A DNA stretch of 64,000 nt from Solirubrobacterales bacterium (GCA_965200635.1 OZ241364.1:990094-1054093); one strand, 5' to 3'; shown: positions 1,401 to 33,060, numbered from the stretch's first letter. Notes: a model not told the origin generated them from the letters alone. Numbers and translations are program-made.

Positions 1401-1403
1401 GCG

Positions 1404-4979: not shown

Positions 4980-5150
4980 CGCGTTCTCGGGCCCCTTTTC
5001 GAGGCCCGGAAACAGACAGAAGATGCTCGGAAGGGTGACGTTCCCGGCATCTCCGTCACGGAACTCGGGCAGGTGTGGCTTCTCTCGCACGGACCCCTCA
5101 CGTCCTGGGCGTGCCGCCACCCCCCGCACCACCGTGCTACCGTTAACCGA

Positions 5151-12071: not shown

Positions 12072-12277
12072 TCTTCGTCAGATTATTCAAGTTTCTGCAA
12101 ATGATGGGCTACGTCCTCTCGGAGCGACCTGATTTCGCTTCAGTCCGTCACCCGCGCACAAGAACGTGACACTTATGGAGAAATTGCATAGATTGGTGAG
12201 GCCAAAAAACACGCACGGGGGACTTTTCATGGCTTGCAGTGAAGAACTAGTTGCGGTGGACGTCCGAGGGGCTTCTG

Positions 12278-12802: not shown

Positions 12803-12803
12803 A

Positions 12804-13130: not shown

Positions 13131-13131
13131 C

Positions 13132-14586
13132 GTGTCCAGGTTTCGTGAGGCAGAGGCCTTCGTCGCGAGCGGGGACGACTGGCGGCTGCTCCCGTTTCGG
13201 TTCGAGCGGCTCAATGGCCGGGTGCTGGTCACCAACATGGTCGGGGAGCATTTGATGCTGTCTGCTGAGGATTTCGAACTTCTTGCGGGTGGCGACCTTC
13301 CCAGTGACTCGAGACTGGTTCGGCGGCTCCGAGCTAAGCAGATGATCAGGAGAGCTGGAGAGCGGGCGCCCTTGACGCTGCTGGCCCTCAAGTCCCGGAC
13401 CCGCTACGCGCGCCTGGCGGAATCCACGGGTCTCCACATTTTCGTCGTGTCGCTGAGATGCGAGCACTCCTGCCCCTACTGTCAAGTCTCGCGTCAGAGC
13501 GAGGATCGGGACCGTTACGACATGTCCCTGTCTACCGCAGAACGGGGCCTCGATATGGCGTTCCGTTCACCGTCTCGTTCTCTGAAGATTGAGTTCCAAG
13601 GCGGCGAGCCCCTGCTCAACTTCGAGCTGATCGAAGAAGTCGTGCGCCAAGCCGAGGAACGGAACCGCGACGAGGGCCGCGACCTCGGCTTCGTTATCGC
13701 CAGCAATCTTGCGTTGCTGAGCGATGAGGTGCTCGACTTCTGCGCCCGACACGACGTCCACATCTCGACGTCCCTCGACGGGCCGGCCGACCTGCACAAC
13801 CGAAACCGTCCTCGGCCCGGCCGCGACAGCTGGGAGCGTGCGGTGGACGGAATCCGACGCGCGCGCGAGGCCCTCGGGGTCGATCACGTCTCGGCCCTGA
13901 TGACGACCACGAAGCGGAGTCTCGGCCGATCGCGCGACATCATCGACACGTATGTCGACCTGGGGCTTCGAGGGATCTTTCTCCGCCCCCTCTCGCCGTA
14001 TGGATTCGCGATCAAGACTAAGAGCTACTCCGCCTACGATGCCGAACGTTGGCTCGATTTCTACCGCGAGGGACTCGCGTACATCCTTGAGTTGAATCGT
14101 CAGGGCTTGGGTCTCACGGAGTACTTCTCGACCGTGATCCTGCGGAAGATGTTGACCAACATCGAACCGGGTTACGTAGACCTCACCTCCCCGGCCGGAA
14201 TCGGGATCGGAGCGCTCGTCTACAACTACGACGGCTCGGTCTATGCCTCCGACGAGGGCCGCATGCTGGCCGAGATGGGCGACGAAACCTTCCGCCTTGG
14301 TCATCTCGAGAAAGACAGCTACGAGGAGATCATGACTGCCGACGCGCTGCTTGCCCCTCTGGAGGAGTCCTTTGCGCCGAGCGCGCCGATGTGCAGTGAC
14401 TGCGCTTTTGAGCCCTACTGTGGATCCGACCCCGTCTATCACTACGCCACGACTGGCGACTTCCTCGGCCGTAAGAGCGAATCAGACTTCTGCCGCCGCA
14501 ACATGGCGATCTTCAAGCATCTGATCGAGCTCTACGAAAGCGACGAATTCGCGCGGCAGACGTTCCTTGGTTGGGCCGGACGATGA
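13132..14586 (+). CDS. hxsB: His-Xaa-Ser system radical SAM maturase HxsB (radical SAM plus SPASM-like C-terminus)
   Basis: CEHSCPYCQV (CxxxCxxC). C-terminal Cys cluster CSDCAFEPYCGSD...FCRRN. Confidence 0.82.
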   Translation: MSRFREAEAFVASGDDWRLLPFRFERLNGRVLVTNMVGEHLMLSAEDFELLAGGDLPSDSRLVRRLRAKQMIRRAGERAPLTLLALKSRTRYARLAESTGLHIFVVSLRCEHSCPYCQVSRQSEDRDRYDMSLSTAERGLDMAFRSPSRSLKIEFQGGEPLLNFELIEEVVRQAEERNRDEGRDLGFVIASNLALLSDEVLDFCARHDVHISTSLDGPADLHNRNRPRPGRDSWERAVDGIRRAREALGVDHVSALMTTTKRSLGRSRDIIDTYVDLGLRGIFLRPLSPYGFAIKTKSYSAYDAERWLDFYREGLAYILELNRQGLGLTEYFSTVILRKMLTNIEPGYVDLTSPAGIGIGALVYNYDGSVYASDEGRMLAEMGDETFRLGHLEKDSYEEIMTADALLAPLEESFAPSAPMCSDCAFEPYCGSDPVYHYATTGDFLGRKSESDFCRRNMAIFKHLIELYESDEFARQTFLGWAGR

Positions 14587-15764
14587 TCAACCTTCGCGGC
14601 CGTGCAAGCGCTTTCGGTTTGCTGCAGCCCCTAGAGCGTGCGGTCTGGATGGTCGTCGATAGCGATCACCTGACGCCGCAGCGGCATGGACGGGCTTACA
14701 AGGTGCGCGCCGGCGAGATCACTCCGCCCGGCTTCGGTCTCTACCTGGTCGACGAGCCGCAATTAGCACCCATCGACGAGTCGTGGATCGCCCTACCCCC
14801 GCTCTTGCAGTACGTCGCCGCCGGAGACGTCATCTCCGCTTCGGCCACCGGGGAGCACGTTCGCGTGCTCTGGCGAGCGGGGAGCCCTAACAACAGCGTC
14901 CTTCTGACCGAGCGTTGCGACCACTACTGCCTGATGTGCTCACAGCCACCGAAGGAACGAGACGACGACTGGCTGCTGGACAACGCTGCAGAGCTCATCC
15001 GCTTGCTTCCGACCTCGACGCCAGGGATTGGCTTCACCGGTGGCGAGCCGACGACCTACGGACAACGGCTCATCGAACTCCTGCGCCTCTGTCGGAACCT
15101 GCTTCCAGACGCCGGCGTGCACGTCCTCTCCAACGGTCGACGTTTCGCAAATTTCGCCTTTGCCAGATCTTGGGCGAGCGTCGACAACCCGAGGATGATG
15201 GTCGGCATCCCTCTCTACGGCGCGGAGCCCGCGCTTCACGACTACGTGGTCCAGTCCGAGGGAGCCTTTGAGGACACGGTCCGCGGAATCGTCAATCTCG
15301 GCGAAGTCGGGCAGCGGATCGAGATTCGCGTCGTCATTCACCAGCAGACGGCTCCAGCTCTGCCGGAGATCGCCGAGTACATCGCCCGCAACCTCCCCTT
15401 CGTCGAGCAAGTCGCGCTTATGGGTCTCGAGATGATGGGCTTCGCCCGCGCCAACGTCAAAGACGTCTGGATAGACCCCGTCGACTACCAAGACGAACTG
15501 CGCGAGGCCGTCTCACTCCTCGCACGCCGACGAGTCAAGACGATGATCTACAACCATCAGCTCTGTCTGCTCCACCGCGAACTATGGCCCTTCGCGGTCC
15601 GCTCGATCTCGGATTGGAAGAACGAGTACCACCCCGAGTGCGAGGCGTGCAGCGTTAGGGAGCGCTGCGGCGGTTTCTTCTTCTCGGCGAAATACCGGCA
15701 CAGCGAGAACATCCAGGCGGTGGCCGCGGAGGCGGGGCGGGCGCCAGCGTTGCTGGAGATCTGA
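14583..15764 (+). CDS. hxsC: His-Xaa-Ser system radical SAM maturase HxsC
   Basis: CDHYCLMCSQ (CxxxCxxC). C-terminal CEACSVRERC. ATGA overlap with the hxsB stop. Confidence 0.82.
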   Translation: MINLRGRASAFGLLQPLERAVWMVVDSDHLTPQRHGRAYKVRAGEITPPGFGLYLVDEPQLAPIDESWIALPPLLQYVAAGDVISASATGEHVRVLWRAGSPNNSVLLTERCDHYCLMCSQPPKERDDDWLLDNAAELIRLLPTSTPGIGFTGGEPTTYGQRLIELLRLCRNLLPDAGVHVLSNGRRFANFAFARSWASVDNPRMMVGIPLYGAEPALHDYVVQSEGAFEDTVRGIVNLGEVGQRIEIRVVIHQQTAPALPEIAEYIARNLPFVEQVALMGLEMMGFARANVKDVWIDPVDYQDELREAVSLLARRRVKTMIYNHQLCLLHRELWPFAVRSISDWKNEYHPECEACSVRERCGGFFFSAKYRHSENIQAVAAEAGRAPALLEI

Positions 15765-15778
15765 GAGGTCGAAGGAAC

Positions 15779-16411
15779 GTGTGGCGGTGGATCGGGGACT
15801 GGTTCGAGATTTGCGTCTCGATCGTCGGAACCGTGCTCGGGGTCGCCGCGGGCGCGGTGGCGATGAACACGGCTCACGCGAATCTCGAAGCGAGCTTCTA
15901 CGACACGATCGCCCAAATTCTTCCTGTGTTCTTGGTCGCACTCGCAGTCGAGCAGAAGCTGATCGACCGCCTGGGCATCGTCGAGGACGAGTACGTGAAG
16001 CGTGCTGATCGCGCCCTCGATCTCGCCATCGCCGCCGAACAGGCCGACAGAGCCGGGGAGTACATCGTTGCCCAGGAGTTTCAGGACAGCTTCGACAGCG
16101 AGCCGCGATTCGGATGGGTCCGTGGATACGTGGATGAGCTGATCTACGGTGACGACGCGAGCGTGCGGGCCGGGGTAGCCGCACAGGCGCGTGATCACTA
16201 CCGTCGAGAGCGTCTGAATGAGGCCCTGTTCGTGGCGATCGCCATCACTGCGCTCATCGTCGGAGAGTGTGCCGCGCTTGGAGGCATGCTACAGGGAGGG
16301 AGTTCACGATGTTCGCTATACCTGGGTCTGGCTATCGGAAGTACGGTCGCCGTGATCGTAGCTTTGACCTTTAGTGGCGCCCGTGAACTGGTGAACTCGC
16401 TGCTTCGGTAA
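15779..16411 (+). CDS. hypothetical membrane protein (about 4 TM), 14 nt after hxsC
   Basis: Hydrophobic segments at both ends. No family recognised. Confidence 0.45.
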   Translation: MWRWIGDWFEICVSIVGTVLGVAAGAVAMNTAHANLEASFYDTIAQILPVFLVALAVEQKLIDRLGIVEDEYVKRADRALDLAIAAEQADRAGEYIVAQEFQDSFDSEPRFGWVRGYVDELIYGDDASVRAGVAAQARDHYRRERLNEALFVAIAITALIVGECAALGGMLQGGSSRCSLYLGLAIGSTVAVIVALTFSGARELVNSLLR

Positions 16412-18371: not shown

Positions 18372-18408
18372 CCGTGGGTATCAGCGGCTGCGCCGTTCAA
18401 GTCAAGGG

Positions 18409-18491
18409 GCTGCTGAGACCTTCGGCTTGAAAGGACGAAGGTCTTCGGCTCTGGGAGCGGGACTGCGGCGGCGATGTGACAGGAATGAGAC
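18409..18491 (+). repeat. tRNA-Glu-like hairpin repeat TLR-A
   Basis: Contains the 17-mer GACCTTCGGCTTGAAAG (18417-18433), identical to 32990-33006 inside the tRNA gene. Perfect 8-bp stem GACCTTCG/CGAAGGTC. Shares GCGGCGGCGATGTGAC...AATGAGAC with TLR-C. Confidence 0.75.
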
Positions 18492-18625
18492 CCGGAGACC
18501 GGCCGCCATCGACTCAGCGGGACTGGCCATCTCTTTCCTTCCCATTTATCTCCTGTTAACTTCCCATATTCCCTAGAGCGATCTCCCAAATTACATAGCT
18601 AACTTTCCCAATTTGCACTACGCTC

Positions 18626-19870
18626 ATGGCGATGTCGGCCAACTTCGCCAGACACAGTCGCAAGCCGATCCTGGAAGCACTGGCCGATACCCGCGTCGTC
18701 TACGTGATGGGCGCCAGGCAGGTGGGCAAGAGCACCCTGACGGGAGAGATCGCGACGAGCGAGCACCTAGCTGACGTGCTCAGCCTTGATAACCGAGCGG
18801 CGAGGGATGCGGCGAGCAGCGACCCCGAGGGATTCGTGGCCGGCCTCTCGCGCCCGGTCCTGCTCGACGAGGTCCAGCGAGCCGGCCCCGATCTGCTGCT
18901 CGCGATCAAGGGGGCCGTCGACGCCGACCAGACGCCGGGCCAGTTTCTGCTGACGGGCTCGGCCAACGTCCTCACCAACCGCAAAGTCCAGGACGCGCTC
19001 ACCGGACGGATCGAGATCATCACCCTGTGGCCGCTGTCCCAGAGCGAGATCGAGGGATCGGCCGGCAATATCGTCGACTCTCTCTTCTCCGCGGCGCCGC
19101 CTCAGATCAGCGATGCCCCGGTCGGCCGCGGGGCCTTCGTCGATCGAATCGCGGCCGGTGGATACCCCGAGGCGCTGAAGCGCAACGGGTCACGCCGGGC
19201 CAACTGGTTCGAGAACTATCTGAAGACGACGCTCGACCGCGACCTGCGCGACATCAGCGATGCGCAGAAATTGGGCGAGATGCCGCGGCTGCTAAAGCTG
19301 CTGGCGGGCCGTGCCGCGAGCCTCCTGAACTCCTCGGAGGTGGGCAAGCGACTGCAGCTGGAGCATAAGACCGTCCGCAGCTATACGACCCTCTTGGAGA
19401 CCGTCTTCCTGGTCAAGACCCTCCCCGCCTGGAGGCCGTCGATCGGAGCCCGCGAGTCGACGACGCGCAAGGTCTACATCGTCGACAGCGGCCTCCTTGC
19501 CCATTTGCTCGGAGCCGACCCGAAACGCCTCGCCGAGGACGAGCGCGTCACCGGAATGGCGCTCGAGAACTTCGTCGCGATGGAGGTGATGAAGCACCTC
19601 GAATGGGCGAGCACCGACGCAAGGCTTTTCCACTACCGAACCGGCAACGACGAGATCGACCTCGTCCTCGAGGATCGCTCAGGAGCGATCGCCTGCCTTG
19701 AGGTCAAGGCGGCGGCGACGGTCCGGGAACGAGACTGGAAGCCGATGGCGAAGATCCGGGATGCTCGCAGCGAGGACTTCCGCGCCGGGTTCCTGATTCA
19801 TGCCGGCGCCCAGACCGTCCCGCTCGGCGATCGACTCTGGGCGGTTCCGATCAGCGCTCTATGGACATAG
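18626..19870 (+). CDS. AAA+ ATPase of the AAA_14/DUF4143 type
   Basis: Walker A VMGARQVGKSTL. Overall pattern of the widespread 'ATP-binding protein, DUF4143' family. Confidence 0.78.
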   Translation: MAMSANFARHSRKPILEALADTRVVYVMGARQVGKSTLTGEIATSEHLADVLSLDNRAARDAASSDPEGFVAGLSRPVLLDEVQRAGPDLLLAIKGAVDADQTPGQFLLTGSANVLTNRKVQDALTGRIEIITLWPLSQSEIEGSAGNIVDSLFSAAPPQISDAPVGRGAFVDRIAAGGYPEALKRNGSRRANWFENYLKTTLDRDLRDISDAQKLGEMPRLLKLLAGRAASLLNSSEVGKRLQLEHKTVRSYTTLLETVFLVKTLPAWRPSIGARESTTRKVYIVDSGLLAHLLGADPKRLAEDERVTGMALENFVAMEVMKHLEWASTDARLFHYRTGNDEIDLVLEDRSGAIACLEVKAAATVRERDWKPMAKIRDARSEDFRAGFLIHAGAQTVPLGDRLWAVPISALWT

Positions 19871-19890
19871 CCGGGACGCCGCAGCCATCA

Positions 19891-19973
19891 AAGCCAATCT
19901 CCATCGGATTGAAGGGACGAAGGGCGTTGGCTAAGGGAAGTGGGATCGCAGCGGCGAGTGACCCCAATAAGAC
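19891..19973 (+). repeat. tRNA-Glu-like hairpin repeat TLR-B
   Basis: AGCCAATCTCCATCGGATTGAAGGGACGAAGGGCGTTGGCT...GCAGCGGCGAGTGAC...AATAAGAC. Aligns with TLR-A, -C and -D. Confidence 0.7.
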
Positions 19974-20029
19974 ACGCGACTCCTGAGGTCGGGCACGCGG
20001 TGGTCTTGCGATCGGGTAGAAGCACGCCG

Positions 20030-20403: not shown

Positions 20404-20579
20404 CCGAGTTCCTCACCGGCAAGTTTGATCGAGATGAGATGCCTGACATCGCGATTCGCGACGTCAGACCCCCAAGCGAGCCCGGTCTACGGCCAATTTG
20501 GACGCCCCATGCACTACCGCTCTGACGCCCTCGCCAGCGCCGCTCGGTAGTGAAGCCTCGGCTCTTTTCCCTGGAGGAG

Positions 20580-20661
20580 AGCCAATCTCCGTCGGATTGA
20601 AAGGACGAAGGGCTTTGGCTTGAGAAGCTGAGATCCGGCGGCGATGTGACCTAAATGAGAC
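20580..20661 (+). repeat. tRNA-Glu-like hairpin repeat TLR-C
   Basis: AGCCAATCTCCGTCGGATTGAAAGGACGAAGGGCTTTGGCT...CCGGCGGCGATGTGACCTAAATGAGAC. Confidence 0.72.
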
Positions 20662-20903
20662 TCCCAGGCCTGATCAGGCAACTGCAGCGGCGCTCGCGCC
20701 GGTCCTCCCCCAAGCGCGAATAGACGCATCTCACGAATCATCGGGAGACGGCCCTACCTAAAGGAGCGCCGAAGGTCGACCGCCAGCGCCCCTTCCCGAG
20801 ATGCTCCAACTACTCGCGTGCGAGAGGGAGACACCGCCAGGGTCGGGGCCACAGGGAACCCGCGACCCTCCCGAGGCGCGGGGTGCGAGTCCGGTGCGCC
20901 GAG

Positions 20904-23834
20904 CTAGGGCGAGGAGTCGACTATCGGATCGTCCGCGCGGGCCGGGTCGCGGGCGACGAAACGCACCAAGGCTCCGTCAGGCGACCCGGTAGAGGTGGGA
21001 GCTACGAAGACGAGGGCGAAGATCACCTCGTGCGCGTCGAGGTCGGCGGTGACGGTGTCGTCGCCGGTCTCGACCATCGGGTAGAGCAGGACCGCTCCGC
21101 GGAGCGGTTTGTGAAGCTGCGCCGCGAGCTCGTCGTCGTGGTTGCCGACGCCGGCGATCTGGCCCGCGATCGGTCGGTGCTTGGGATCACTGATCGCGCC
21201 GAAAAGGCCGCCGCGGCCTTTTCGGCGGCGACGGCGGAAAACACTGAGGGTGCCGTGGCCGACGACCTCGGCGCGGGGGCCGGGGCCGACGTGCTGGGGC
21301 AGCATCACCACCCAGTCCTCGATCTGGTCGCTGCCGAGGCCCTCCAGCCAGGTCAGATCGGCGGCGAAGTGATCGTCGGGCCGCCAGCGCAGGTCTTTCA
21401 AGACCGCGAGCAGCTCCTGATGGTCGACGGTGCCGTACCGACAAGTCAAGAGGCTCCTCGCTGACGAGCCCTCCAGCTTGAAGGCTCCGTCCTTCGCCGC
21501 GGCTTTCACAAGCGGTGCGACCGCGGTCGTGTTGTGGGCGATGTCCGCAGGATCTTCCGGGTAACCGGTCGGCTCCAAGCGCTCCCCCGGGGAGCGGCGC
21601 TCCACCAGCTGTGCGTTGTACATCTTCCCGGCCGACGAGGGCTTCAGCCAGCCGAGATGCTGGGAAACGAGTGGCGGGATGTCCCGAGGAGTGATCATCG
21701 GCACCCCGTTTTTCAGCTCGCCGTAGCGCCGAATCTCCCCGCGGAACAGCTCCTCCGAACGACACGCTGCCTCGAATGCCTCGTAGAGGTCAAAGGCGCG
21801 GCCGTGACCGCCGCGATCGATGTAGAGGCGGACCAGGTCCTCGTAGCCGCTACGGAAACCGAACCAGCGACCCATCTGCATCAGGGTGTCGGCCTGTTTC
21901 GTCACTCGGCGGTAGTAGGAAACCGTCAGCCCCTCTACGGTGAACCCGCGCGAGAGCTTGGCGCCGCCGAGCAGGACCCGCCAGACCGGTCGGCTGTCGA
22001 AGTCGACCTCTTCCCGTGCCGCTTCTCTGTCCCCGTTCACAATCAGAACCGGGTCGTTGTCGGGACCCTCGATCCGGGACACCACCTCGCCGACGTACCC
22101 CTGGACGCTCTCGTAATCGGCCGGGACCGCCGCGCCGTCGCTGCGGGCCTCCATCACAGCCGCGACGTCGGAGTGAAACAGGTCGCGCAGCCGGGCATGG
22201 CCGGTGGACCCCCAGTATCCGGATCCCTTCCACGTCTCCCGCACCGCTTCGGCGAGCTGGAGGTGGTCCACCTGTTTGACCGACTCGTGGATCAGCATCG
22301 TGTGGTGTTTGAAGCGGCGCTCTTCGTTCACTTCCCGGTAGAGCTTGATCGCGCCGGTGAGGATGAACATGTCGAGCGCCTGCTGCATCACGCCCTCCAG
22401 GTCTTCCTCGTCGATCTCGCGGACGTAGGCGAGGCGCTTCGAGTTGGTAACGGTCCGCACCTCGTCCTCGGGCAGGATGTCGAGATCGTGGAACTCGACC
22501 GCGCCCATGTATCCCGGCGGCCGGTCTAGCGAGAGGATGAAACTTTTCGGGAAGAGGTCGGCGGAGTCATCGGGGTCGACGAAGACGTTGGCGAACGGCG
22601 TCGCGGTGTAGCCGACGTACTGTCCTCGCGGCAGTTTCTCGAGCAGTTCGGAGATCAGGCCGTTGATTGCCGTCCGCTTCGTCTGGCCGGCTTCCCAGTT
22701 TTTCGGGTTGGAGGTGTTCAACGAGGCCTGGTCGGACTCGTCGTCGATGATCAGCGCCGGGATGTCGCCGAGCTTCGCGGTGATCCGGTTCAGGTCCTTG
22801 ACCAACCGCGTCAGGACGCTCTTGTTCTTCTTGACGACGACGATCCGGGTCGGCACCCGGTGCAGGTTCTCCGGGGCGTTGAGTGGCTTGTCGGGATGGA
22901 GGCGCTCGAAATCGAGGGAGGAGATCCCCTGCGCCAGGCTGGCGTAGTCGCCCGCTTTGGTGGTCAGCCGGTAGATATCGGCGAATCCAAGCTCCGAGGG
23001 CAGGCCGCCGTGGCTGACGAACTCCGCGCGATCGGGATCCCCGGCGTAGTCGACGCTGCGGACCGCGTCGGGATCGTCCCGGTCGATCCCACGCATCAGG
23101 TTCTCGTCGCCGACCAGCTCCTTGTCGATTCGTCTCTGCGTCTGCCGGCGGAGCAGGTCGGTCTGCCCAGTGAGGACGATTATCAGGCGGTAGCCGGCGT
23201 CGATCGCCTTGGCGATGACACCGGTGAAGTTGGCGGTCTTCCCACTCTGGACGTAGCCGACTACCAGCCCTTTGGCCTGGTAGGCCTCTCTGCGCTCGGG
23301 GTCGCTCAAGCGCTCGACGATCCGGGTCGTGTTGAGATCAAGCGCGGCGACCGAGGTCTCATTTTCCCACTCCCTGGCGAGGTATTCGGCGTAGTGCTTC
23401 CAGTAGAAGGGCTCGCGTTCGCCCATTACCCGGCCGTACCAGGGCTCGAAGACGTCGCTGACGACCACCGACCTGTCCTCGGCCCGCGGAACGGCCTTAT
23501 CGAGGCACCCGATCAGCTCCTCGCCGAGCCCGAGCCGCTCGTAGACGAGGGCGCGGCGCTCGCCGGTTCCGGGCTTCGTCTGTCCGACCCATTCCGCCAT
23601 CGGCTCCGCGTCCCAGCCCGCGAGGGTCAGGCGAAACCTGGTCAAGAGCCGCTCCGCCGGTTCGGCCGCGACCAGGTGGGCGGCCAGGACCGAGGGCGCG
23701 GCCAACTCCGGCACATCCATCTCGTCCGCCTCGAACTCGGCCCGCCGAGCGAGGTCCGAGGGACCGCGCGTCGCCATCCCGTCGAGAGCGGATGCGTAGA
23801 TCCTGTACAGGGCCTCCGCGTTCTCAGCTGCCAA
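20904..23834 (-). CDS. Z1-domain SF2 helicase-like ATPase
   Basis: P-loop GYVQSGKTANFTG, Walker B/DExx LIIDDESDQAS. Size and order are typical of Z1 proteins that follow GHKL and PD-(D/E)XK genes. Confidence 0.8.
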   Translation of the reverse strand: MAAENAEALYRIYASALDGMATRGPSDLARRAEFEADEMDVPELAAPSVLAAHLVAAEPAERLLTRFRLTLAGWDAEPMAEWVGQTKPGTGERRALVYERLGLGEELIGCLDKAVPRAEDRSVVVSDVFEPWYGRVMGEREPFYWKHYAEYLAREWENETSVAALDLNTTRIVERLSDPERREAYQAKGLVVGYVQSGKTANFTGVIAKAIDAGYRLIIVLTGQTDLLRRQTQRRIDKELVGDENLMRGIDRDDPDAVRSVDYAGDPDRAEFVSHGGLPSELGFADIYRLTTKAGDYASLAQGISSLDFERLHPDKPLNAPENLHRVPTRIVVVKKNKSVLTRLVKDLNRITAKLGDIPALIIDDESDQASLNTSNPKNWEAGQTKRTAINGLISELLEKLPRGQYVGYTATPFANVFVDPDDSADLFPKSFILSLDRPPGYMGAVEFHDLDILPEDEVRTVTNSKRLAYVREIDEEDLEGVMQQALDMFILTGAIKLYREVNEERRFKHHTMLIHESVKQVDHLQLAEAVRETWKGSGYWGSTGHARLRDLFHSDVAAVMEARSDGAAVPADYESVQGYVGEVVSRIEGPDNDPVLIVNGDREAAREEVDFDSRPVWRVLLGGAKLSRGFTVEGLTVSYYRRVTKQADTLMQMGRWFGFRSGYEDLVRLYIDRGGHGRAFDLYEAFEAACRSEELFRGEIRRYGELKNGVPMITPRDIPPLVSQHLGWLKPSSAGKMYNAQLVERRSPGERLEPTGYPEDPADIAHNTTAVAPLVKAAAKDGAFKLEGSSARSLLTCRYGTVDHQELLAVLKDLRWRPDDHFAADLTWLEGLGSDQIEDWVVMLPQHVGPGPRAEVVGHGTLSVFRRRRRKGRGGLFGAISDPKHRPIAGQIAGVGNHDDELAAQLHKPLRGAVLLYPMVETGDDTVTADLDAHEVIFALVFVAPTSTGSPDGALVRFVARDPARADDPIVDSSP

Positions 23835-24819
23835 TGCCCGCTCCCATCAGGTCGAGTGCGGCGACGAGCTCGGGGGGCGGGCCGGAGCTCGCCGCAAAGC
23901 TCGAGACGTCGATGTCGTAGTCGACCTCACGGATCTTCGAGGTGTCGACCGGCAGACCGGTGAGCAGCGACGGGGTGATCCGGGGGAAGTCGTTCTCGAC
24001 CCGGAGCGGAAGCGGAACGGTCCGCAGCCGCCAACGATCTTTGTAGAGGTCGCGCTGGGTCTCGTTCCAGCGGACGCCGGCCAAGTTCGCAAGCACGCGC
24101 TCGTGCCCCTCCGGGCCCGCCTGGTCGAGAACGTCGTCGACCAGCTCCGACAAGGTCCGGCCCTGGTCGTCCCCACCTCGCGTTATCTGGACCGAGAGCA
24201 GCCAGAGCGCGCCTCCCGCGGTCGGCAGAAGCTGGCCGAGGCCGTGGATCCGATGCACGCGGTGCTCTCCCGCCGTCGTCTTCACCTCGACGTCAATCTC
24301 CCCGAAGCCGAAGTCATGCTCCTCCCGCAGGCCGCCCCGCCAGGCCTCCGGGCCGGCGGCTCCCGAGGCCAGAAGTGCCTCGGTCAGCAGGAGCTCTCCA
24401 AAGAGGCCGACCTCGGCTTCGACCCCGAGACGCGCTCGGGCAGAGAGGATCGATTCCCAGAGGTCCAGGGTCTCTTCGAAGGCCGCCAGCGGCCCGGCGC
24501 CGTCGAGCTGGATTCGGTCAGCGATCATCATCAGCATCGAGTAGCCGTCCGCGACCAGCTCCTCCCCCATGGTCGCGATCTCAAGGTAGCGTCGGCCGCC
24601 ATCGAAGACAGCGGCGGCGGTCACGTTCGCCAGCCGGTTCGGAGGGATCACCGCGATCTCGTCCATCGGGGCGCGGAGGGTGAGGCGGCCGGCCGGCTTA
24701 TCGATCAGCAGCCTCAGCTCGGGCTCTCCCCCGAGGCGGATCAGGACCGGCACTCCGGTCTCCCAATGTTCCTTCAAGGCCGGAAGCGAGAGACGCCTCT
24801 CGTCGCCGGTGACACTCAT
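23824..24819 (-). CDS. PD-(D/E)XK-motif nuclease-fold protein
   Basis: EHDFGFGEIDVEVKTT (D...E.K). ATGA overlap with the upstream GHKL gene and an 11-nt overlap with Z1. Confidence 0.7.
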   Translation of the reverse strand: MSVTGDERRLSLPALKEHWETGVPVLIRLGGEPELRLLIDKPAGRLTLRAPMDEIAVIPPNRLANVTAAAVFDGGRRYLEIATMGEELVADGYSMLMMIADRIQLDGAGPLAAFEETLDLWESILSARARLGVEAEVGLFGELLLTEALLASGAAGPEAWRGGLREEHDFGFGEIDVEVKTTAGEHRVHRIHGLGQLLPTAGGALWLLSVQITRGGDDQGRTLSELVDDVLDQAGPEGHERVLANLAGVRWNETQRDLYKDRWRLRTVPLPLRVENDFPRITPSLLTGLPVDTSKIREVDYDIDVSSFAASSGPPPELVAALDLMGAGIGS

Positions 24820-26333
24820 CCCAGCTCCTCTCGTGCCGCAGCGGTCAGGACCGCTTGCCAGATCTCGACGTTGTCCTTGTCCCGGGGACCCATGTTCTGT
24901 CCCGAGAAGAGCTCCTCCATCAGGAGGAACATCAGCGTCTTCACCACCGGCGAGTCATTTAGCGCCCCACGCCGTCCGCCCGCGATCGCCTTTCGGTAGC
25001 AGCTGTTCAGCCAAAGGACGTTGAGCTCGCGGTCGACTTCGAAGAACTCATCCCCCTCGAGCTCCTGCCACCTGATGTCAACCGGCTCGTCATCCCTGAT
25101 CGGGAGCTCGCGCTCAAAAGCCCGACGCACGCGCGGCGAAAATCCGGCGCCCGGCGGCATCACAGGCGAACGCCTCCGGGTTCGTCGGTTCGACGCCTTG
25201 AGCACACCGTGTGCCTCCTCGGTGTATTCCCGGAAGCCCGGCCCATCAGAGGTTTCGGCGGACCAGACGGCCCGGCTGAACTCGGCGCCGACCTCGATCC
25301 CGTTCTTCTCCGGCTTCAGGCTGACCATCCGCTCGAGGTCGCCGTCGATGTCGACCGCGACCCGCGCGAGGCTGAGCTGTTTGTCGGCGGGCACGAGGCC
25401 GTTCCATCCCCCAAGCTGAACCAGCCTGTCGTTGTAGTAAACGTAGATGCCCTGTCGCCTGATCTGATCGCTGTCGAGGCGGAAGGCATCGAGGCTGGAC
25501 CTGCCGGGCCAGATGTGACACGCAAGGTCGAGCGATGCTCGGGTGCCGGTCGCGGTCAGGGTTTTCGGCCATCCCGGGGCGCCGCTGTGCGGATAGCCGA
25601 ACGGGTCCAGCGGCTTGACCTCGACCCCCGGCAGGACCTCTTCATTGTCCACGATGTCGATCCGCACCGACATCTGCTCCGCCTCCAGGATCCGGTGGAA
25701 GACGAGGCCGATGTGGGTCCTGACCTTCGCGATCACGTCCTGAAGGAATCGCTCGACCGCGTCCTCGTCGTCGACGGCCGGAAAGCCATTGACGTCGTCC
25801 CAGCGGATCACGGTGCCGGTGCGCAGGTCCTTGATCCCCCAGTCGAGTCCCAGCGTGTCACCGGCGAAGTCCGGGGCGACGATCTGACACTCGTAGTCAC
25901 TCTTCGCCTTGTCGCTGATCCAGACCCTGCCGGTCGGCTCACCGTTCTTGCTGACCGAGATCACGGTAACGCTGCGCGCTTGGCTGAAGGAGGCCGCCTT
26001 CAACCCGAGGCCGAAGCGACCTATTTCGCCCTGCCCATAGGTCCGGTCGCCGCCGACGGTCATCGCGACGTTGATCTGCTCATCGTCCATACCGATGCCG
26101 TCGTCGACGACGAAGAGCCGACGGAGCCGGCCCGACTCCTTAACGAAGCGGATCAAGACCTCGGTCGCTTCAGCGTCAATCGAGTTGTCGACCAGCTCGG
26201 CGATGGCCGCCTCGAGGGTATGGTTCCGACCCAGCGCCTCAAGCGAGCGGGGCTCGGGGGTCAGCCGGACCGAGCCGGAGACCGGGATCGAATCGTTTGG
26301 TTCCAAGGTGCTTTCCATCGCTAGTCTCGTCAT
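24816..26333 (-). CDS. GHKL (HATPase_c_3 / MORC-like) ATPase
   Basis: N-box AELVDNSIDA, G1 box VVDDGIGMD. Start placed at MTRLAMES (26333), because the 125 upstream codons of the tracked ORF are Arg/Ser-rich and not protein-like. Confidence 0.82.
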   Translation of the reverse strand: MTRLAMESTLEPNDSIPVSGSVRLTPEPRSLEALGRNHTLEAAIAELVDNSIDAEATEVLIRFVKESGRLRRLFVVDDGIGMDDEQINVAMTVGGDRTYGQGEIGRFGLGLKAASFSQARSVTVISVSKNGEPTGRVWISDKAKSDYECQIVAPDFAGDTLGLDWGIKDLRTGTVIRWDDVNGFPAVDDEDAVERFLQDVIAKVRTHIGLVFHRILEAEQMSVRIDIVDNEEVLPGVEVKPLDPFGYPHSGAPGWPKTLTATGTRASLDLACHIWPGRSSLDAFRLDSDQIRRQGIYVYYNDRLVQLGGWNGLVPADKQLSLARVAVDIDGDLERMVSLKPEKNGIEVGAEFSRAVWSAETSDGPGFREYTEEAHGVLKASNRRTRRRSPVMPPGAGFSPRVRRAFERELPIRDDEPVDIRWQELEGDEFFEVDRELNVLWLNSCYRKAIAGGRRGALNDSPVVKTLMFLLMEELFSGQNMGPRDKDNVEIWQAVLTAAAREELG

Positions 26334-26599
26334 GGTATTGCGACGGTCGCCTGCCGCGTTTCGCCAACGCCCGCCTAACGAAGTCCTCCCGTCGTCGGGA
26401 CCGGTCCTGCCGGAGGTGGGGATGGCAGACGGTGGTGAGTCCGCTCTCATCGAGCTGTCTTCCCTCGCAGGCAGACACACCCGCGGGGATCTCCTCGTAG
26501 ACCTCGAGGTTGAAGGGCGCGCAACCGCGCAGAGTGGACCGCGGCAGTCCGATACGACGACCCTAAGGGAGGACTGGCCGCCGCTCTGCAGGCTCTTGG

Positions 26600-26683
26600 C
26601 GTGCTCGGGCGCCATACGTCTTGAGGACGAGGGGCGTTGGCTTTGAGGAGCCGCTTTGCGCCGGCGTGTAGCTGTGATGAGAC
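26600..26683 (+). repeat. tRNA-Glu-like hairpin repeat TLR-D (most diverged)
   Basis: CGTCTTGAGGACGAGGGGCGTTGGCTTTGAGGAGCCGC...GCCGGCGTGTAGCTGTGATGAGACC aligns with TLR-A and TLR-C. Lies in the 485-bp MTase/GHKL spacer. Confidence 0.55.
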
Positions 26684-26818
26684 CGGAACGGAAGCCCACC
26701 ACGCTCACCTTAAGCCGAACTTCACCTCATCAGGCGGAGACTTTGCCCGCCTACCGCAAGACACTACGAGGCGTCCCCCGGTCCGGCTGACGACGACCGA
26801 GTGAACAAGTCAATCTCT

Positions 26819-28372
26819 TTACTTTCTAGCTACCACGAGTGCCTCACGCGCACTTCCCCCCTTGACGTTCTTTGGGCGGAGATCCCGCGCAGATACGACT
26901 TCAACGTCGGAAAAGCCGATCTCGATTGCGAAGTGAGCCAGCAGAACATCGGTTAACACGGGTAGCCGCCACAACTCTTGCCAACCAGATTCTGCCTCTC
27001 CCTTTTCTCGCCTGGAGAAGGTTGAGTTGGCGACAACGCAGACCAAAAGACCCCCCGCACGAAGCAAACGGAATTGTTCCTGAAACACCTTGAACATGTC
27101 TTCAAAGTACTGGCGGACAACAACCCCATCAGCCTTCCGCCGAGCTTCCGTCGTCAGCCAATCTTCCAATCCCTCGGCTAGGTCGGTGGCACGGCTTCCA
27201 CCCTTTGGAAAATGGGCCGTTTGCGAGAACCGCACGGACGGATGACTTCTCAAGGTCCCTCTGCGAGTTGATCGGAAAGACTCCGCCGAAACGACATGCT
27301 CCATCAGCCATAGCTCCAGCTTGTAAATCTCGCTGTAGTCGATGCAATTTAGGTATGGCGGCGAGAAGAGCGATAGATCTGCCCAACCTTCCGGGAATGC
27401 AAGTTCTCCGGAGCCCAGCTCCAGCGCTCCGAGGTCTCGTGCATCTCCCGCGACGTGAAGCGCAGAGGTTTGGGCCGCCTTCCCTCGCTGGTCAGCGACC
27501 TCTTCAAGGTCAGCGATCATGGCCGACCACTGACTCGCCAAAGCATCTTTAACGGGACCCCTTGGCGATCCCTGCCCAAGCGAGCCCGCCAAAGAATTGG
27601 CACGGCGAGTTCGGCTTCTCTTGATGCGCAAAGCCCGACCATCCTTCATCGTCCCCGAAAGATCCTCGATCACTGCCGCAAGTCCGAGGAGGAAGAAGTC
27701 GATCTCAAGCTGTGACGCGCCGGGCAGCGCTCGGAGGTGGTCGCGGGCAGCTATGAGAGCTCTGAGGCGCGGGCGGGAGAACACCTCCGGCCGCGAGAGA
27801 GTCGAAAGCTCTGGAATCACGACCGTCTGCTGATGGTCATAGGCAAGAGCAGGCTCCAGGAGCGCTCTTAGTCTCAGCGTGTCTAACTGAGGCCAATTGA
27901 GCTTCGTTGCGCCGACAAAGTGTGCAAACGGCGAATACTCGACACTTCTAACCTCGCTCACTAAGTCATGTTCCATCCCAGCTAGTGCCGTGGTCCCGAC
28001 GCCGCCGAAGACGTCGGCCACTCGCAAGTTATCCGAGAGCGAAAACTCGGCGATCACGGCACTCAGCAAAGTTGGCGAAAAGCCCTCCTTGTAGGTAAAC
28101 CAACGATGGATCGGAGTGGACCGTAGATCCTCCGACCCGACCAGAGAGCCGAATACGTGCCGTCTGTCCCGGATGCGCAACTCGGACTCAAGCTCCGAAC
28201 TCGCCTTCCGCAACCTATGCCAGCGAAGCAAATCGACTTTGCCATCCGGTCTGCTCCACCCGTCGTCAGTCCTTGCCAGCATTGGCTCGACAGCGACTCC
28301 ATGATGACGGCCCTCATCGTCCCACGCAGACTCGGAAAATGGTCCCCCTCTCTCTTGCTCGACCTCGCTCAT
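26819..28372 (-). CDS. DNA amino-methyltransferase (N6-A or N4-C), alpha-type motif order
   Basis: Motif I VADVFGGVGTTA is about 225 aa upstream of motif IV FSPPYLNCIDY. One of the most AT-rich-looking coding stretches in the window. Confidence 0.82.
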   Translation of the reverse strand: MSEVEQERGGPFSESAWDDEGRHHGVAVEPMLARTDDGWSRPDGKVDLLRWHRLRKASSELESELRIRDRRHVFGSLVGSEDLRSTPIHRWFTYKEGFSPTLLSAVIAEFSLSDNLRVADVFGGVGTTALAGMEHDLVSEVRSVEYSPFAHFVGATKLNWPQLDTLRLRALLEPALAYDHQQTVVIPELSTLSRPEVFSRPRLRALIAARDHLRALPGASQLEIDFFLLGLAAVIEDLSGTMKDGRALRIKRSRTRRANSLAGSLGQGSPRGPVKDALASQWSAMIADLEEVADQRGKAAQTSALHVAGDARDLGALELGSGELAFPEGWADLSLFSPPYLNCIDYSEIYKLELWLMEHVVSAESFRSTRRGTLRSHPSVRFSQTAHFPKGGSRATDLAEGLEDWLTTEARRKADGVVVRQYFEDMFKVFQEQFRLLRAGGLLVCVVANSTFSRREKGEAESGWQELWRLPVLTDVLLAHFAIEIGFSDVEVVSARDLRPKNVKGGSAREALVVARK

Positions 28373-28555
28373 AGGTTCAGAGCCGGAGGCGCATGCCTAG
28401 CGCGCCCCGCGAGGTCATCCCGATATCGCATCGAGGGCTCTCGGAGCCTGAGAGATCGACGACGAAGATAGCCTCCCACAGCGAGGCAGCACCCTCCGGA
28501 TCGCCGGGATCTTTCACGCAGGGGAGGCGTCGCGTGGCTCGGACTAACAGCATGG

Positions 28556-29623
28556 CTAGCCAGCGAGAAGCTTCGGCTCAAGCCAGAATCGGCGGGGCTC
28601 ACGGAAATCCGAACGCTCGGCCTCATAGTCGGGGTTGTATTCGATCTCCGCGTCGCGGAACGCAACGGCGTCGTCGTCCGAGATCTCAGCGGGCACCGCT
28701 TTGACGTTGGCTCGGCGGGCGTCGTAGACGACCAAGTAGCCCTCAGTCTCAAGATCTGGCGTTCGCTGCTTGTTCTCCTCCAGATAATCGGCGAGCTGCT
28801 TTGCGCCCGCTCTCGGACGAGCCGGAGCGCCATACGAGGTCGCAAGCTCGGTGCCATCAGTGCTAACGCTCTGTCCAAGCCACTTGATCTCGATCAGCGA
28901 GAGCTGGGCGGAAAGACTCCATTTGACCTTGATATCGATGGGCTGGGTCTCGCTGACGTTCTGCTCCTCTCTGACTTCTGCGTGATCGCGAAGGGTAGTT
29001 TCGAGGTGCTGAGCCAAGGACCCGCGCATGATCTTCTCCGGTTTGTTGACCAGAAAAACATGGCGACTGTCATGCCATGCTTGGCGCAGGAGGTGACAGG
29101 TCGACCAGCGAGCCTGCTCCCGTTCGTAATAGTCGAGCGCTTTGGCGAGTGCAAAAAAGGTCGGAGGGGCGATCGCACTTGGATGACCATTGGGGTTTCG
29201 GACCGTTTGGAAGGTGCCTTCGATCAGAAAGAACTCGCCACTCTCGCGCCAGAGATAGACGACTGCACTTTCGTCGAAACCCTTGAGAGTCGCTTTTTCC
29301 GGCACCCCGGGCCAGGCCCACAAGGTGCCGTTGGGCATCACCTGGACAACACCACCTCCGCCGACAACCTCAGCAAGAGCCTCGGCGTTGGTCTCAATCC
29401 CCTCATCTTCCCAATCGAGCGGATCTCCATCGACAGTCGCCAGGACGGTGAGGCCGCCGCCGAACTCCTCAGCTGACCGATGCCGATAAATACGCCGAAC
29501 GGCGATTAAGAGCTCCTTGAGCCGATCGGCCCCGGCGCTACCGTGTTGGCGGACGATGCGGGGCGTGAAGATTTCCTCGATAATTTGCCGCATCTCGTCA
29601 GGATCGAACTTCGGCTCGCTCAC
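28556..29623 (-). CDS. predicted PD-(D/E)XK nuclease-fold effector of the ABC-3C-like triad
   Basis: E..TQPIDIKVKW-x9-SLIEIKWL (D...E.K). GTGA overlap with the preceding gene. Confidence 0.55.
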   Translation of the reverse strand: MSEPKFDPDEMRQIIEEIFTPRIVRQHGSAGADRLKELLIAVRRIYRHRSAEEFGGGLTVLATVDGDPLDWEDEGIETNAEALAEVVGGGGVVQVMPNGTLWAWPGVPEKATLKGFDESAVVYLWRESGEFFLIEGTFQTVRNPNGHPSAIAPPTFFALAKALDYYEREQARWSTCHLLRQAWHDSRHVFLVNKPEKIMRGSLAQHLETTLRDHAEVREEQNVSETQPIDIKVKWSLSAQLSLIEIKWLGQSVSTDGTELATSYGAPARPRAGAKQLADYLEENKQRTPDLETEGYLVVYDARRANVKAVPAEISDDDAVAFRDAEIEYNPDYEAERSDFREPRRFWLEPKLLAG

Positions 29624-30228
29624 ACCACCTCCGCCTCCTCGGGCAGACGACGGGCCAGATAGGTGAGCCAGACCACAGCAGGAACCATCAAGTCGTCTGC
29701 TGCGTCATCACCCGCGAGCGCCTCATTGAGCGCGTCAAATTGGCTCTCCAACAGTGCGAGACCAGCCTCATCGAGAAGTTCCTGGGTCCTTACGAAGCGC
29801 AGCGCCCGCCGAAGGCCCGGCTCTCGACCGAGCGCTCCGGCAAGCGACGGGAGCGGCATTGCAAGGGCGGCGCCGGCGGCGGCGTCGAGGTAGGGAAGCC
29901 GACGAGCGTTGAGCTGCATCTCGCTGATTTGGCCAAGGTCAGCGCGACCGAGATCGGTGATCGTCCAAACCTCCTCGCCACGCTCAATCAAGCCGCTGTT
30001 GCGGGCGCGGTTCTGAGCCTTCGAGAGGTAGTAGGAAAAAGGCGCACCGGTCCGGGTAGCCGTGAATTTGTAGCCCCACCACTCCGGCCGGCGGCCGTCA
30101 AAAACAGCAAGCAGGCAAGCGAGATAGGCGAGAGTCTGAAGCTCGCCGTCGGTCATTCCCGCTGAGGCCTCCGTCTGCATCGCCGCGATCTGGAGAAGGT
30201 CAAATTCGGCGAGCGCCTGCTCGCTCAC
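29620..30228 (-). CDS. small helical protein in the 'middle component' position of an ABC-3C-like triad
   Basis: 202 aa with no catalytic motif. GTGA overlaps on both sides tie it to the ATPase and the nuclease genes. Confidence 0.45.
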   Translation of the reverse strand: MSEQALAEFDLLQIAAMQTEASAGMTDGELQTLAYLACLLAVFDGRRPEWWGYKFTATRTGAPFSYYLSKAQNRARNSGLIERGEEVWTITDLGRADLGQISEMQLNARRLPYLDAAAGAALAMPLPSLAGALGREPGLRRALRFVRTQELLDEAGLALLESQFDALNEALAGDDAADDLMVPAVVWLTYLARRLPEEAEVV

Positions 30229-32192
30229 TGGGCGGCCCCGAGTTTCTGCTCGATCGCCGCGTACGCCCTCTCGAAGAGCTCCTCGTGTCCTTGCTGAACC
30301 TCGGTCAGATAGGTCCAGCTGGTCATCCTCACCAGCTTCATCCGTTTGTCGCCGCAGCGCTCGGCTAGGCGAAGCAGTAGCTCGGAGGTGTTGATGTTTG
30401 CGGTCATGAGCAGCTGACCGCCACCTTCGACGAAGCTCGCGAACATCTCCCCTGCCTGATTCTCGTAGGCGATGTCGAGCGAGCCCTCGGGGGTGTCCAC
30501 GTAGAGGAACGCACCTCCCGATGCCGCCCCTAGCCTCTCTGCCAGTGCCATACGAAGCGCGATGTCAAGAAAGAACCGTTGGCTCTCAGAGAGCTCGTCG
30601 GGAGATCGGCGATCGGATTGCGCGAGAACCAGACGCAGGCGCAGTTTCGAAGAATGGATCTCCAGATCTATTTCCAGCTCAATCCCAAGAAAGAGATGGG
30701 CCAGCTCTTGAAAGCGAGGGACAAATTCATCCTCAACCGCCGCATAGGCCTCCATCAACTCCGCGTGGAGCACCGAGACGGCGGCTTTTGCCTCTTCGCG
30801 ACGCTCGCGCTCGCGGGCTTTGCGCTCCATCAGTTGGGCAATCTGGTTGCGAAGGCCGGCGGTCGCGCTATCCACTCCGAAGTCTTCGACCGAGCGACGA
30901 GCCAGAGCTAGTGAATTTGCCTTCTTGAAGCCGTCGAGCTGGGCCGTTGACTCGCGAAGAGCGCGGTCGGCGTCATCCGCTTCGGTACGCAGTCGCGACA
31001 CTGCGCCCTGCTGGACCTCAAGATCGCCCTCAAGGGCCACAATCCTCTCCGAGCTCTCGGCTATCTCGGCAATCAGTGCCGCATCCTCATCGGCGCTCTC
31101 GGCGGGGAGGTCAGACCCGCACAGAGGACAGAAGCCCTCTTTGAGGCGACCGGCGACCTCGGAAGCTACCTCGGGGCCGTTCGCACCGCAGATTCCACAG
31201 GACCCGCGGTCCACTGCGTCCACGACTATTGGGTGTGAATGCGTATGACGTCGCGTTTTGAGTCGGTCGGCGAAGAGTCGGTCATAACGCGCCTGCTCAG
31301 CACGCATCTTGGCGCCGGAGTCGGCCAGTCGGACTTGAGCGTCGCGCCAGTCCGTTTCGAGCCTCTCGAAATGGTCTGCACAGTCTTCGAGACGTTCCTC
31401 CAGTCGTTTGTGCTCATGCTGCAGGTCTTGGTCTCCAGCATCTTTCCCGCTGATTGCCCGTTCGAGCGCCTCTAGTTCGCGACGCACGCCAGTGGCCTGC
31501 CACTGGAGGTTTCGGACCAGCGAGTCAGCCGAGTCGATCCTTTTCTGCTGGCGCTCCAGCTGGCTCGTCTGATCGGCGGAGATTCCAAAAGCCAGATAGA
31601 GGGCGGTTTCCGCAACCCGCTCGTCCCAGAACAGCAGACGGCGCTCCTCGTCGAACGTAAGTACCAGCAGCTGCAGAAAGACCAGCTGGGAGAAATCGTC
31701 AAGACCGGTGTCAGCCAGGACGGCTTTTTCGTAGGCGCGGTGGCGCTGCGCATCATCAAAGGCAGAGTCGTCGTAGGTCGTTACTTGGCCGTCCGGCTCC
31801 GTGATTTCGAGCTCTCGCAAGCCCTGAGTCGCAAACATGCCGCGCACGATGCGATAGGCGCGCTCCCCAATTGTCATCTCTAACGCGACTTGGGCGGCGC
31901 CGTGGTCCTCCGAACTGATCCGTCCGGAGAAGTAGGTGGAGGAATAAGAAAGGAGGTCTTCGTAGTAGCTGCCGTACCGAACAAAGTTTTTCTCTGCCTC
32001 GGCCACGACACCGCAGATACCGAAGTTGATCGCCGAGAGAAAGGTTGACTTCCCGAGCCCGTTAGCTCCTGCGAGACAGAAGACGGGCTTGTCGAAGTCG
32101 GCCTCTACCCGTTTGGTTCGGGCGTAGAGAGAGAACTGTTCGAGCACAACGCGGGTTGGCTTGGGCATCCGTAGTCCGGTCGTTCCGCTCAC
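30225..32192 (-). CDS. Rad50/SMC-like ABC ATPase with coiled-coil insert carrying a CxxC-x19-CxxC zinc ribbon
   Basis: Walker A GANGLGKST, signature LSESQRF, Walker B/D-loop FLYVDTPEGSLD. CGICG...CPLCG sits inside a heptad-rich middle region. The start may be the Met at 32168. Confidence 0.82.
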   Translation of the reverse strand: MSGTTGLRMPKPTRVVLEQFSLYARTKRVEADFDKPVFCLAGANGLGKSTFLSAINFGICGVVAEAEKNFVRYGSYYEDLLSYSSTYFSGRISSEDHGAAQVALEMTIGERAYRIVRGMFATQGLRELEITEPDGQVTTYDDSAFDDAQRHRAYEKAVLADTGLDDFSQLVFLQLLVLTFDEERRLLFWDERVAETALYLAFGISADQTSQLERQQKRIDSADSLVRNLQWQATGVRRELEALERAISGKDAGDQDLQHEHKRLEERLEDCADHFERLETDWRDAQVRLADSGAKMRAEQARYDRLFADRLKTRRHTHSHPIVVDAVDRGSCGICGANGPEVASEVAGRLKEGFCPLCGSDLPAESADEDAALIAEIAESSERIVALEGDLEVQQGAVSRLRTEADDADRALRESTAQLDGFKKANSLALARRSVEDFGVDSATAGLRNQIAQLMERKARERERREEAKAAVSVLHAELMEAYAAVEDEFVPRFQELAHLFLGIELEIDLEIHSSKLRLRLVLAQSDRRSPDELSESQRFFLDIALRMALAERLGAASGGAFLYVDTPEGSLDIAYENQAGEMFASFVEGGGQLLMTANINTSELLLRLAERCGDKRMKLVRMTSWTYLTEVQQGHEELFERAYAAIEQKLGAAQ

Positions 32193-32964: not shown

Positions 32965-33060
32965 TGCGCCCGACCAGATTCGAACTGGCGACCTTCGGCT
33001 TGAAAGACCGACGCTCTTTGGGCCCCCGGAGGGACCCGTTGACCGCTGAGCTACGGGCGC
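32965..33060 (-). tRNA. tRNA-Glu(UUC) with an insertion of about 24 nt in the D-loop (96 nt; functional status uncertain)
   Basis: Manual cloverleaf: acceptor GCGCCCG/CGGGCGC, D-stem GCTC/GAGC, anticodon arm TCGGT-CTTTCAA-GCCGA, variable loop AGGTC, T-arm GCCAG-TTCGAAT-CTGGT. The D-loop is 31 nt and includes the hairpin GGGTCCCTCCGGGGGCCC. No encoded CCA. Confidence 0.65.

Follow-up and report, generated by a model that had tools for sequence, protein, structure and literature searches.

We analysed a 64,000-nucleotide stretch of DNA from a Solirubrobacterales bacterium (GCA_965200635.1 OZ241364.1:990094-1054093; hereafter the window), in which positions 20904-28372 hold an amino-methyltransferase gene followed, across a spacer, by three overlapping genes for a MORC-like GHKL ATPase, a DUF4420 PD-(D/E)XK nuclease and a Z1 protein (the trio). 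Our results assign the methylase to a module lying upstream, as its probable modification gene, and not to the trio. We consider it probable that two independent defence cassettes, each acquired horizontally, lie side by side here, the interval holding parts of both, and that the trio would encode an ATP-driven restriction complex. The trio belongs to a known, partly characterised paraMORC/Z1/DUF4420 restriction-like family, distantly related to MzaB, MzaD and MzaC. A four-gene unit made of the amino-methylase and the trio is not supported.

The three trio genes were as follows.

20904..23834, minus strand: Z1 protein, 976 amino acids, TTG start; superfamily 2 (SF2) DEAD-Z1 helicase-like motor carrying additional domains at both termini.
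23824..24819, minus strand: DUF4420 PD-(D/E)XK nuclease, 331 amino acids, matching PF14390.
24816..26333, minus strand: MORC-like GHKL ATPase, 505 amino acids, ATG at 26333, HATPase_c_3.

The four genes, their motifs and overlaps and the 485-bp spacer, which a preliminary description of this DNA had reported, were all confirmed at the same coordinates on the minus strand. The GHKL ATPase carries ELVDNSIDA (amino acids 46-54) and DDGIGMD (77-83), the DUF4420 protein EIDVEVK (174-180), and the Z1 protein GYVQSGKT (193-200) and IIDDESD (362-368). The GHKL and DUF4420 genes join in an ATGA overlap (24816-24819) and the DUF4420 and Z1 genes in an 11-nt overlap (23824-23834), and these overlapping open reading frames (ORFs) suggested translational coupling. 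A longer GHKL ORF can be read from 26708, and its N-terminal extension was non-coding-like (GC by codon position 0.58/0.71/0.70).

Profile searches were run with the Pfam, NCBIfam (June 2026), PADLOC (2023) and Rfam libraries. The families proposed earlier for the trio were borne out, with values of 2e-51 for Pfam Z1, 5.9e-25 for HATPase_c_3 and 1e-31 for PF14390, the PD-(D/E)XK family, and the Z1 protein also matched PADLOC Helicase_II ('Type II helicase domain protein') at 1.6e-37. These family assignments are far beyond chance. Against the NCBIfam models, the GHKL ATPase scored 130.7 bits for MzaB (equivalog cut-off 850), the Z1 protein 265.5 bits for MzaC (cut-off 1500) and the DUF4420 protein 61.5 bits for MzaD (cut-off 420). 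The best sequence matches of the GHKL ATPase among solved structures were MORC2/MORC4, followed by MutL, in line with the MORC-like label it had been given; the Z1 and DUF4420 proteins matched no solved structure by sequence. The structure model of Z1 was poor (predicted local distance difference test, pLDDT, 61), and a fold search with it was weakly informative (HsdR, E 1e-3).

Motif conservation was judged across 20-81 homologues, the number depending on the protein, and the motifs named in the preliminary description proved invariant or almost so. GxVQSGKT, DDExD, TATP and QxGRWFG were invariant in 81 homologues of Z1; H168, D169, E178 and K180 in 20 homologues of the DUF4420 protein; and the N-box, DxGxG and GxxGxGxK in 66 homologues of the GHKL ATPase. 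Compared with the copy in locus L108, whose DNA is 95% identical and whose Z1 protein is 98% identical, Z1 had a ratio of nonsynonymous to synonymous substitution (dN/dS) of 0.06. The trio is intact and under purifying selection.

The genomic context of the trio was then determined in 83 loci: 80 taken from genomes around homologues of Z1, and another three belonging to close relatives. The GHKL gene lay directly upstream of Z1 in 76 of the 80 genome loci, usually with DUF4420 between them. A C5-cytosine methylase gene (PF00145) was present within 10 kb in 65/83 trio loci and within 1.5 kb in 49/83, and a Vsr endonuclease gene in 58/83, against a background of 0/32 in other loci totalling 303 kb. 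The preliminary description would have been contradicted by a trio found mostly without any methylase; the family is mostly accompanied by one, and it is of a different kind, the C5 type, which is absent from the window. Neither a C5 methylase nor a Vsr gene, intact or degraded, was detected in the 64 kb (best tblastn E 0.01); the search, which included the spacer of 485 bp and the 1 kb that follows Z1, yielded no remnant of either. Homologues of the window methylase or of the triad upstream of it were found in none of the 83 trio loci.

Eighteen of the 83 relatives had no C5 methylase within 10 kb. In L002, L109 and L110, three of the five closest relatives that we examined, genes for a C5 methylase and for Vsr lay no more than about 4 kb from the trio. 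Two C5 methylases lay about 8 kb downstream in L108, which had no Vsr; another close relative, L001, had Vsr only; and the trio copy on Arthrobacter plasmid p2MP (L116) had no methylase in the record as annotated. The loss of the usual partners from the whole window, with no remnant detected, would fit a trio that is a decaying or silent remnant, left behind after the C5 methylase and Vsr genes were lost. However, the three ORFs are intact and overlap in a way that suggests translational coupling, all catalytic motifs are intact, and the dN/dS of 0.06 against the 95%-identical copy speaks for continued selection, which together make decay very unlikely.

Several further features were seen around the trio in relatives. 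In Streptomyces and related genomes (L006-L050), a conserved cluster larger than the trio was seen (locus coordinates about 13-20 kb). Downstream of GHKL-Z1, many of the Streptomyces loci had Vsr, one or two C5 methylases, DUF6339, a 330-amino-acid protein and a helix-turn-helix (HTH) protein of about 700 amino acids, and a SEC-C-motif protein often lay upstream. A protein of about 1100-1200 amino acids directly preceded the GHKL gene in L051, L052, L054, L057, L059, L069 and L116 (p2MP; 114-3404), and may be an alternative fourth component of trio loci; of these, L052, L054 and p2MP (as annotated) had no nearby C5 methylase. In L109 a second pair, consisting of a C5 methylase and a 680-amino-acid HATPase_c_3 protein (2286-5374), was located 2 kb upstream of the trio, and this pair resembles BbrUII/HgiDII-type restriction enzymes.

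The amino-methylase has partners of its own. It is the last gene of an operon-like run of four.

26819..28372, minus strand: amino-methyltransferase, 517 amino acids, motif I before motif IV; PADLOC MTase_II 2.6e-33.
28556..29623, minus strand: 355-amino-acid protein whose C-terminal part is predicted to be a PD-(D/E)XK-like nuclease domain; invariant E220, D230, E245 and K247.
29620..30228, minus strand: 202-amino-acid protein, fold without assignment; present in all 12 complete-module loci.
30225..32192, minus strand: SMC/Rad50-like ABC ATPase, 655 amino acids, AAA_23 and SMC_N; two CxxC in the coiled-coil region.

The earlier classification of the methylase as an alpha-order amino-methyltransferase was upheld: FGGVG (amino acids 122-126) precedes SPPY (337-340), as the alpha-type order of FxGxG ahead of (S/D/N)PPY demands, and D120, F122, G124 and SPPY were invariant in its relatives. 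The window protein itself matched no Pfam or NCBIfam model, its relatives carry PF01555, and its match to PADLOC mad2 was weak (E 0.003). The SMC-like ATPase matched AAA_23 (9.6e-10) and SMC_N, and had weak PADLOC matches to LmuB (5.6e-18, 63.5 bits), mad3 (E 4e-9), PbeC and DndD.

The 355-amino-acid protein gave a confident AlphaFold2 (AF2) model (pLDDT 91). Its fold matches, to Hjc, SwaI, McrC and NucS, were weak, with none in the PDB better than E 0.086, and it is predicted to be a nuclease on the strength of a D...ExK signature, the four listed residues being invariant across 39 homologues. It is likely the effector of the methylase module. The family comprised 695 representative clusters among 1.84 billion, and no member was found on PLSDB plasmids. 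For the 202- and 355-amino-acid proteins and their Pseudomonas aeruginosa counterparts, no Pfam, NCBIfam or PADLOC model was matched.

The context of the methylase was determined in 34 loci carrying a related methylase, and none of them contained the trio. The complete SMC-like triad accompanied the methylase in 12 of the 34, and five more were short contigs showing the adjacent 355-amino-acid gene before the contig end. The complete modules occurred in three gene orders, with the methylase last, first or divergent, and in four lineages (Actinomycetota-like metagenomes, Pseudomonas, here P. aeruginosa, Enterobacter and Pedobacter), with Spirillospora among the hosts as well; conservation thus spans P. 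aeruginosa, Bacteroidota and Actinomycetota. The preliminary description had left it to be checked whether the methylase varies together with the trio or with the upstream triad; these 12 complete and five partial loci showed that it goes with the triad. From gene content, we infer a restriction-modification (R-M)-like module, in which the methylase would mark self-DNA and the SMC-like ATPase and the nuclease would restrict. A literature search for a described four-gene system of this SMC-like and methylase type returned nothing relevant, which is not proof of absence.

Six of the 34 methylase loci had an alternative triad, composed of a 627-663-amino-acid protein with HATPase_c_3 and histidine-kinase-like character, a receiver-domain protein and a protein of about 180 amino acids.

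Alternative-triad loci: L117, 6764-11539; L118, 6848-11605; L105, 1-4620; L090; L089; L091.

By eye, the protein of about 180 amino acids appeared PIN-like. On the L105 contig the methylase, the alternative triad and then an SMC-like gene stand in a row. The alternative GHKL protein of L117 and L118 had only the Bergerat N-box in common with the trio GHKL ATPase (44 amino acids, E 3e-6).

The preliminary description had joined the methylase and the trio into one R-M-like module, in which the methylase would mark self-DNA and the trio would restrict unmarked DNA. The two parts do adjoin on the same strand, and in the spacer (26334..26818, 485 nt) no terminator-like site was found. Rare adenine methylases are known from paraMORC neighbourhoods (Iyer, Abhiman and Aravind 2008, PMC2292703), and members of the methylase family also occur beside another HATPase_c_3 protein, as in L117 and L118, or next to two effector sets, as in L105. 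Against this, co-occurrence was absent from both sides (0/83 trio loci and 0/34 methylase loci), the methylase stands in an operon-like run with its conserved partner triad, and the HATPase_c_3 protein of L117 and L118 resembles the trio protein in the N-box only. Base composition differed as well: the GC content at third codon positions (GC3) was 0.84-0.86 for the trio genes, against 0.63 for the methylase gene and 0.69-0.71 for the upstream triad; flanking core genes had 0.90-0.95. Furthermore, the spacer contains a cassette-boundary repeat.

26617..26684, plus strand: att-like repeat in the spacer, nhmmer E 7.4e-06; boundary between the cassettes.

Because composition, trio context, methylase context and the boundary repeat agree, we assign the methylase to the upstream operon (26819-32192) and treat the trio as separate; that the two form a single module is very unlikely. 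Neither annotation nor experiment should therefore treat the trio and the adjacent amino-methylase as one R-M unit; if the methylase were deleted and toxicity of the trio looked for, the outcome would most likely reflect the wrong module.

For the trio we propose the following mechanism. It would work as an ATP-driven restriction complex in which the Z1 protein is a DEAD-Z1 translocase on double-stranded DNA (dsDNA), like the H subunit of CglI. The MORC/MutL-like GHKL ATPase would form a dimer on DNA and, through clamping or looping, link recognition of the target to cleavage, and the DUF4420 PD-(D/E)XK protein would be the DNA cutter. In most relatives self-DNA would be guarded by one or two adjacent C5-cytosine methylases, and Vsr would repair the resulting T:G mismatches.

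Several points weigh against a separate trio acting as a restriction complex. We only infer that the proteins form a complex and restrict DNA, as we do the subunit roles and the discrimination of self from non-self. The putative translocase assignment of Z1 draws on sequence motifs together with the weak HsdR fold match. It is awkward to suppose an active restriction complex that has no linked methylase, even though 18 of the 83 relatives are in the same state, and the partner switching of the methylase together with the L105 arrangement makes it not unthinkable that one methylase serves two neighbouring modules.

As to how the host of this trio would be protected, we favour an unlinked C5 methylase elsewhere in the genome, with confidence that falls slightly short of even. 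The main alternative, which we hold tentatively, is that the trio is methylase-independent in the manner of the anti-phage system mzaABCDE, responding to a phage-specific cue and needing no methylase anywhere in the genome. Its proteins are homologous to MzaB, MzaC and MzaD, mzaABCDE defends E. coli and has no methylase gene, and the 18 relatives without a nearby C5 methylase and the p2MP copy without an annotated one point the same way. However, the trio comes without MzaA or the AIPR protein MzaE, it scores far under the Mza equivalog cut-offs, and its closer relatives show a tight, operonic linkage to C5 methylases and Vsr, with L002, L109 and L110, among the closest, having these genes nearby. 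The E. coli strains in which Mza was studied carry a Dcm of their own, and given this the methylation independence of Mza itself is not proven.

A further explanation would be that the trio is a modification-dependent (type IV-like) enzyme attacking methylated foreign DNA. The lack of a linked methylase at this trio would suit such an enzyme, as would the variation of Mza activity with the cytosine modification state of T4. In relatives such as L007, L017 and L038, however, one or two C5 methylase genes belong to the operon-like run that contains the trio, and this would make an enzyme dependent on 5-methylcytosine (5mC) self-destructive, so we give this explanation almost no credence. Standing apart from its usual C5 methylase and Vsr, the trio offers a useful test case for self/non-self discrimination.

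Both cassettes lie in an island of about 11.1-33.0 kb, with purE (10595-11092) at one end and a 96-nt tRNA-like gene at the other, beyond which come an SDR gene and lysS. A repeat of about 100 nt was found at cassette boundaries, in one orientation throughout and only inside the island, by nhmmer with a profile built from the three best copies. Besides the spacer copy, the following elements were located.

20566..20690, plus strand: att-like repeat directly downstream of Z1, nhmmer E 1e-34; end of the trio cassette.
19880-20000 and 18396-18520: att-like repeats flanking the PDC-S01 gene, stronger copies than the spacer one.
32988-33021: repeat-like core within the tRNA-like gene.
32965..33060, minus strand: tRNA-like gene, 96 nt, found by ARAGORN; Rfam tRNA 36.6 bits; perfect acceptor and T arms.

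Repeat copies also occurred in L081, L088 and L108, in the same relative positions in related contigs; one follows the methylase stop codon in L081 and one the Z1 stop codon in L108 (4127-4240). In L108, one copy is fused to a tRNA 3' half and is attR-like. The core of the repeat resembles the anticodon arm of the tRNA-like gene. An RNA or attC-like hairpin was considered and rejected, since the repeat matched no Rfam family besides tRNA and 11 copies had no conserved structure; the repeat is better read as a DNA-level site. In its D-loop region the tRNA-like gene carries an additional hairpin, about 20 nt long, and its anticodon could not be named by ARAGORN. It is kept in L081 with a compensatory T-stem change, and the variable island begins right at its 3' end. 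The lysS-SDR-tRNA flank is common to L081 at 78% identity, with a different cassette order there.

The library scan for island neighbours took in the larger ORFs at about 8 to 35.5 kb. Among those in the island no integrase was found, only HNH_2, radical-SAM, DUF6159 and PDC-S01 proteins, and no AIPR or sigma/HTH match was obtained with Pfam, PADLOC or NCBIfam; the spacer, too, contains no coding-like ORF. The gene at 18626-19870 (plus strand), inverted relative to the other cassettes and with a repeat on both sides, encodes an AAA_14 and DUF4143 ATPase that matches the PADLOC candidate PDC-S01 (3e-153). The left part of the island (11115-16411) contains an HNH_2 endonuclease gene (11115-12071, minus strand), two adjacent genes for radical-SAM proteins (13132-14586 and 14571-15764) and a gene for a 210-amino-acid protein without matches.

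These results would be consistent with a broader picture, which we put forward as a possibility rather than as the expected outcome: the methylase may be the hub of an undescribed R-M-like family with two alternative triads, and its module and the trio may be integrase-less cassettes in an array bounded by the repeats that resemble the anticodon arm of the tRNA-like gene. Repeat-bounded cassettes beside such a gene hint at a mode of defence-island assembly. Compared with the trio, the methylase module of four genes and the array of cassettes are less expected and more novel leads.

Compared with known systems, the methylase module resembles Lamassu (LmuA/B/C) and DndD/PbeC-type systems in combining an SMC/Rad50-like ATPase, a small protein and a nuclease-like effector. 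It differs from Lamassu in having only a weak LmuB match, no LmuA or LmuC, and an obligatory amino-methylase, which Lamassu lacks. The triad was therefore rejected as Lamassu, the defining components being absent by PADLOC, also from the P. aeruginosa counterparts. MADS (mad1-8) has a methylation-based logic in common with the module, and weak mad2 and mad3 matches were obtained. MAD6, MAD7 and MAD8 are mandatory in the published MADS model, but the module has none of them and consists of four genes instead of eight; with only the marginal mad2/mad3 matches, MADS was likewise rejected.

The trio is closer to described systems. The system mzaABCDE (Gao et al. 2020; NF041932-4; PADLOC Mza) has the homologous MzaB, MzaC and MzaD, and a linked methylase of its own is found in neither. 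In E. coli it gives protection from T4, and its MzaD protein, when purified, cleaves DNA (bioRxiv 10.1101/2022.06.16.496414). In contrast, the trio has no MzaA and no AIPR protein MzaE, its gene order is B-D-C, its closer relatives are methylase-linked, and its scores below the equivalog level (131/850, 265/1500 and 61/420 bits) place it outside the curated families.

Neighbourhoods of GHKL, SF2-helicase and restriction endonuclease (RE)-fold genes were assigned to R-M systems by Iyer, Abhiman and Aravind (2008, PMC2292703), so the preliminary description was right that GHKL, nuclease and Z1 genes beside methylases were known from comparative genomics. The trio has the same three protein kinds as these paraMORC/MORC neighbourhoods, GHKL, Z1 and RE-fold, with their motifs intact. 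A system of Z1, DUF4420 and a C5 methylase has also been described (Miller et al. 2022, PMC9523054). The link of the paraMORC R-M family to Dcm-type methylases and Vsr was reproduced in our loci (65/83 and 58/83), whereas the copy studied here is accompanied by no C5 methylase or Vsr in the 64 kb, nor by an AIPR gene among the larger ORFs scanned.

The third relative is CglI/NgoAVII (R2H2). There the nuclease is a B3-PLD R subunit, with a B3-like DNA-binding and a PLD nuclease domain, of which the trio has no counterpart, whereas the trio nuclease is a separate PD-(D/E)XK protein; the trio also has an extra GHKL ATPase, no C5 methylase and a Z1 protein of 976 instead of 632 amino acids. The DEAD-Z1 motor is common to both. 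H.CglI is marked by a Q in Walker A (GxxQSGKT) and by QxxR in motif VI (PMC5861437), and GYVQSGKT and QMGR are invariant in the 81 trio-Z1 homologues. The earlier statement that no biochemical model is known for such an ATPase, helicase and nuclease is partly outdated, since MzaD cleavage has been reported (10.1101/2022.06.16.496414) and the CglI DEAD-Z1 motor is a characterised dsDNA translocase (PMC5861437, PMC4267653).

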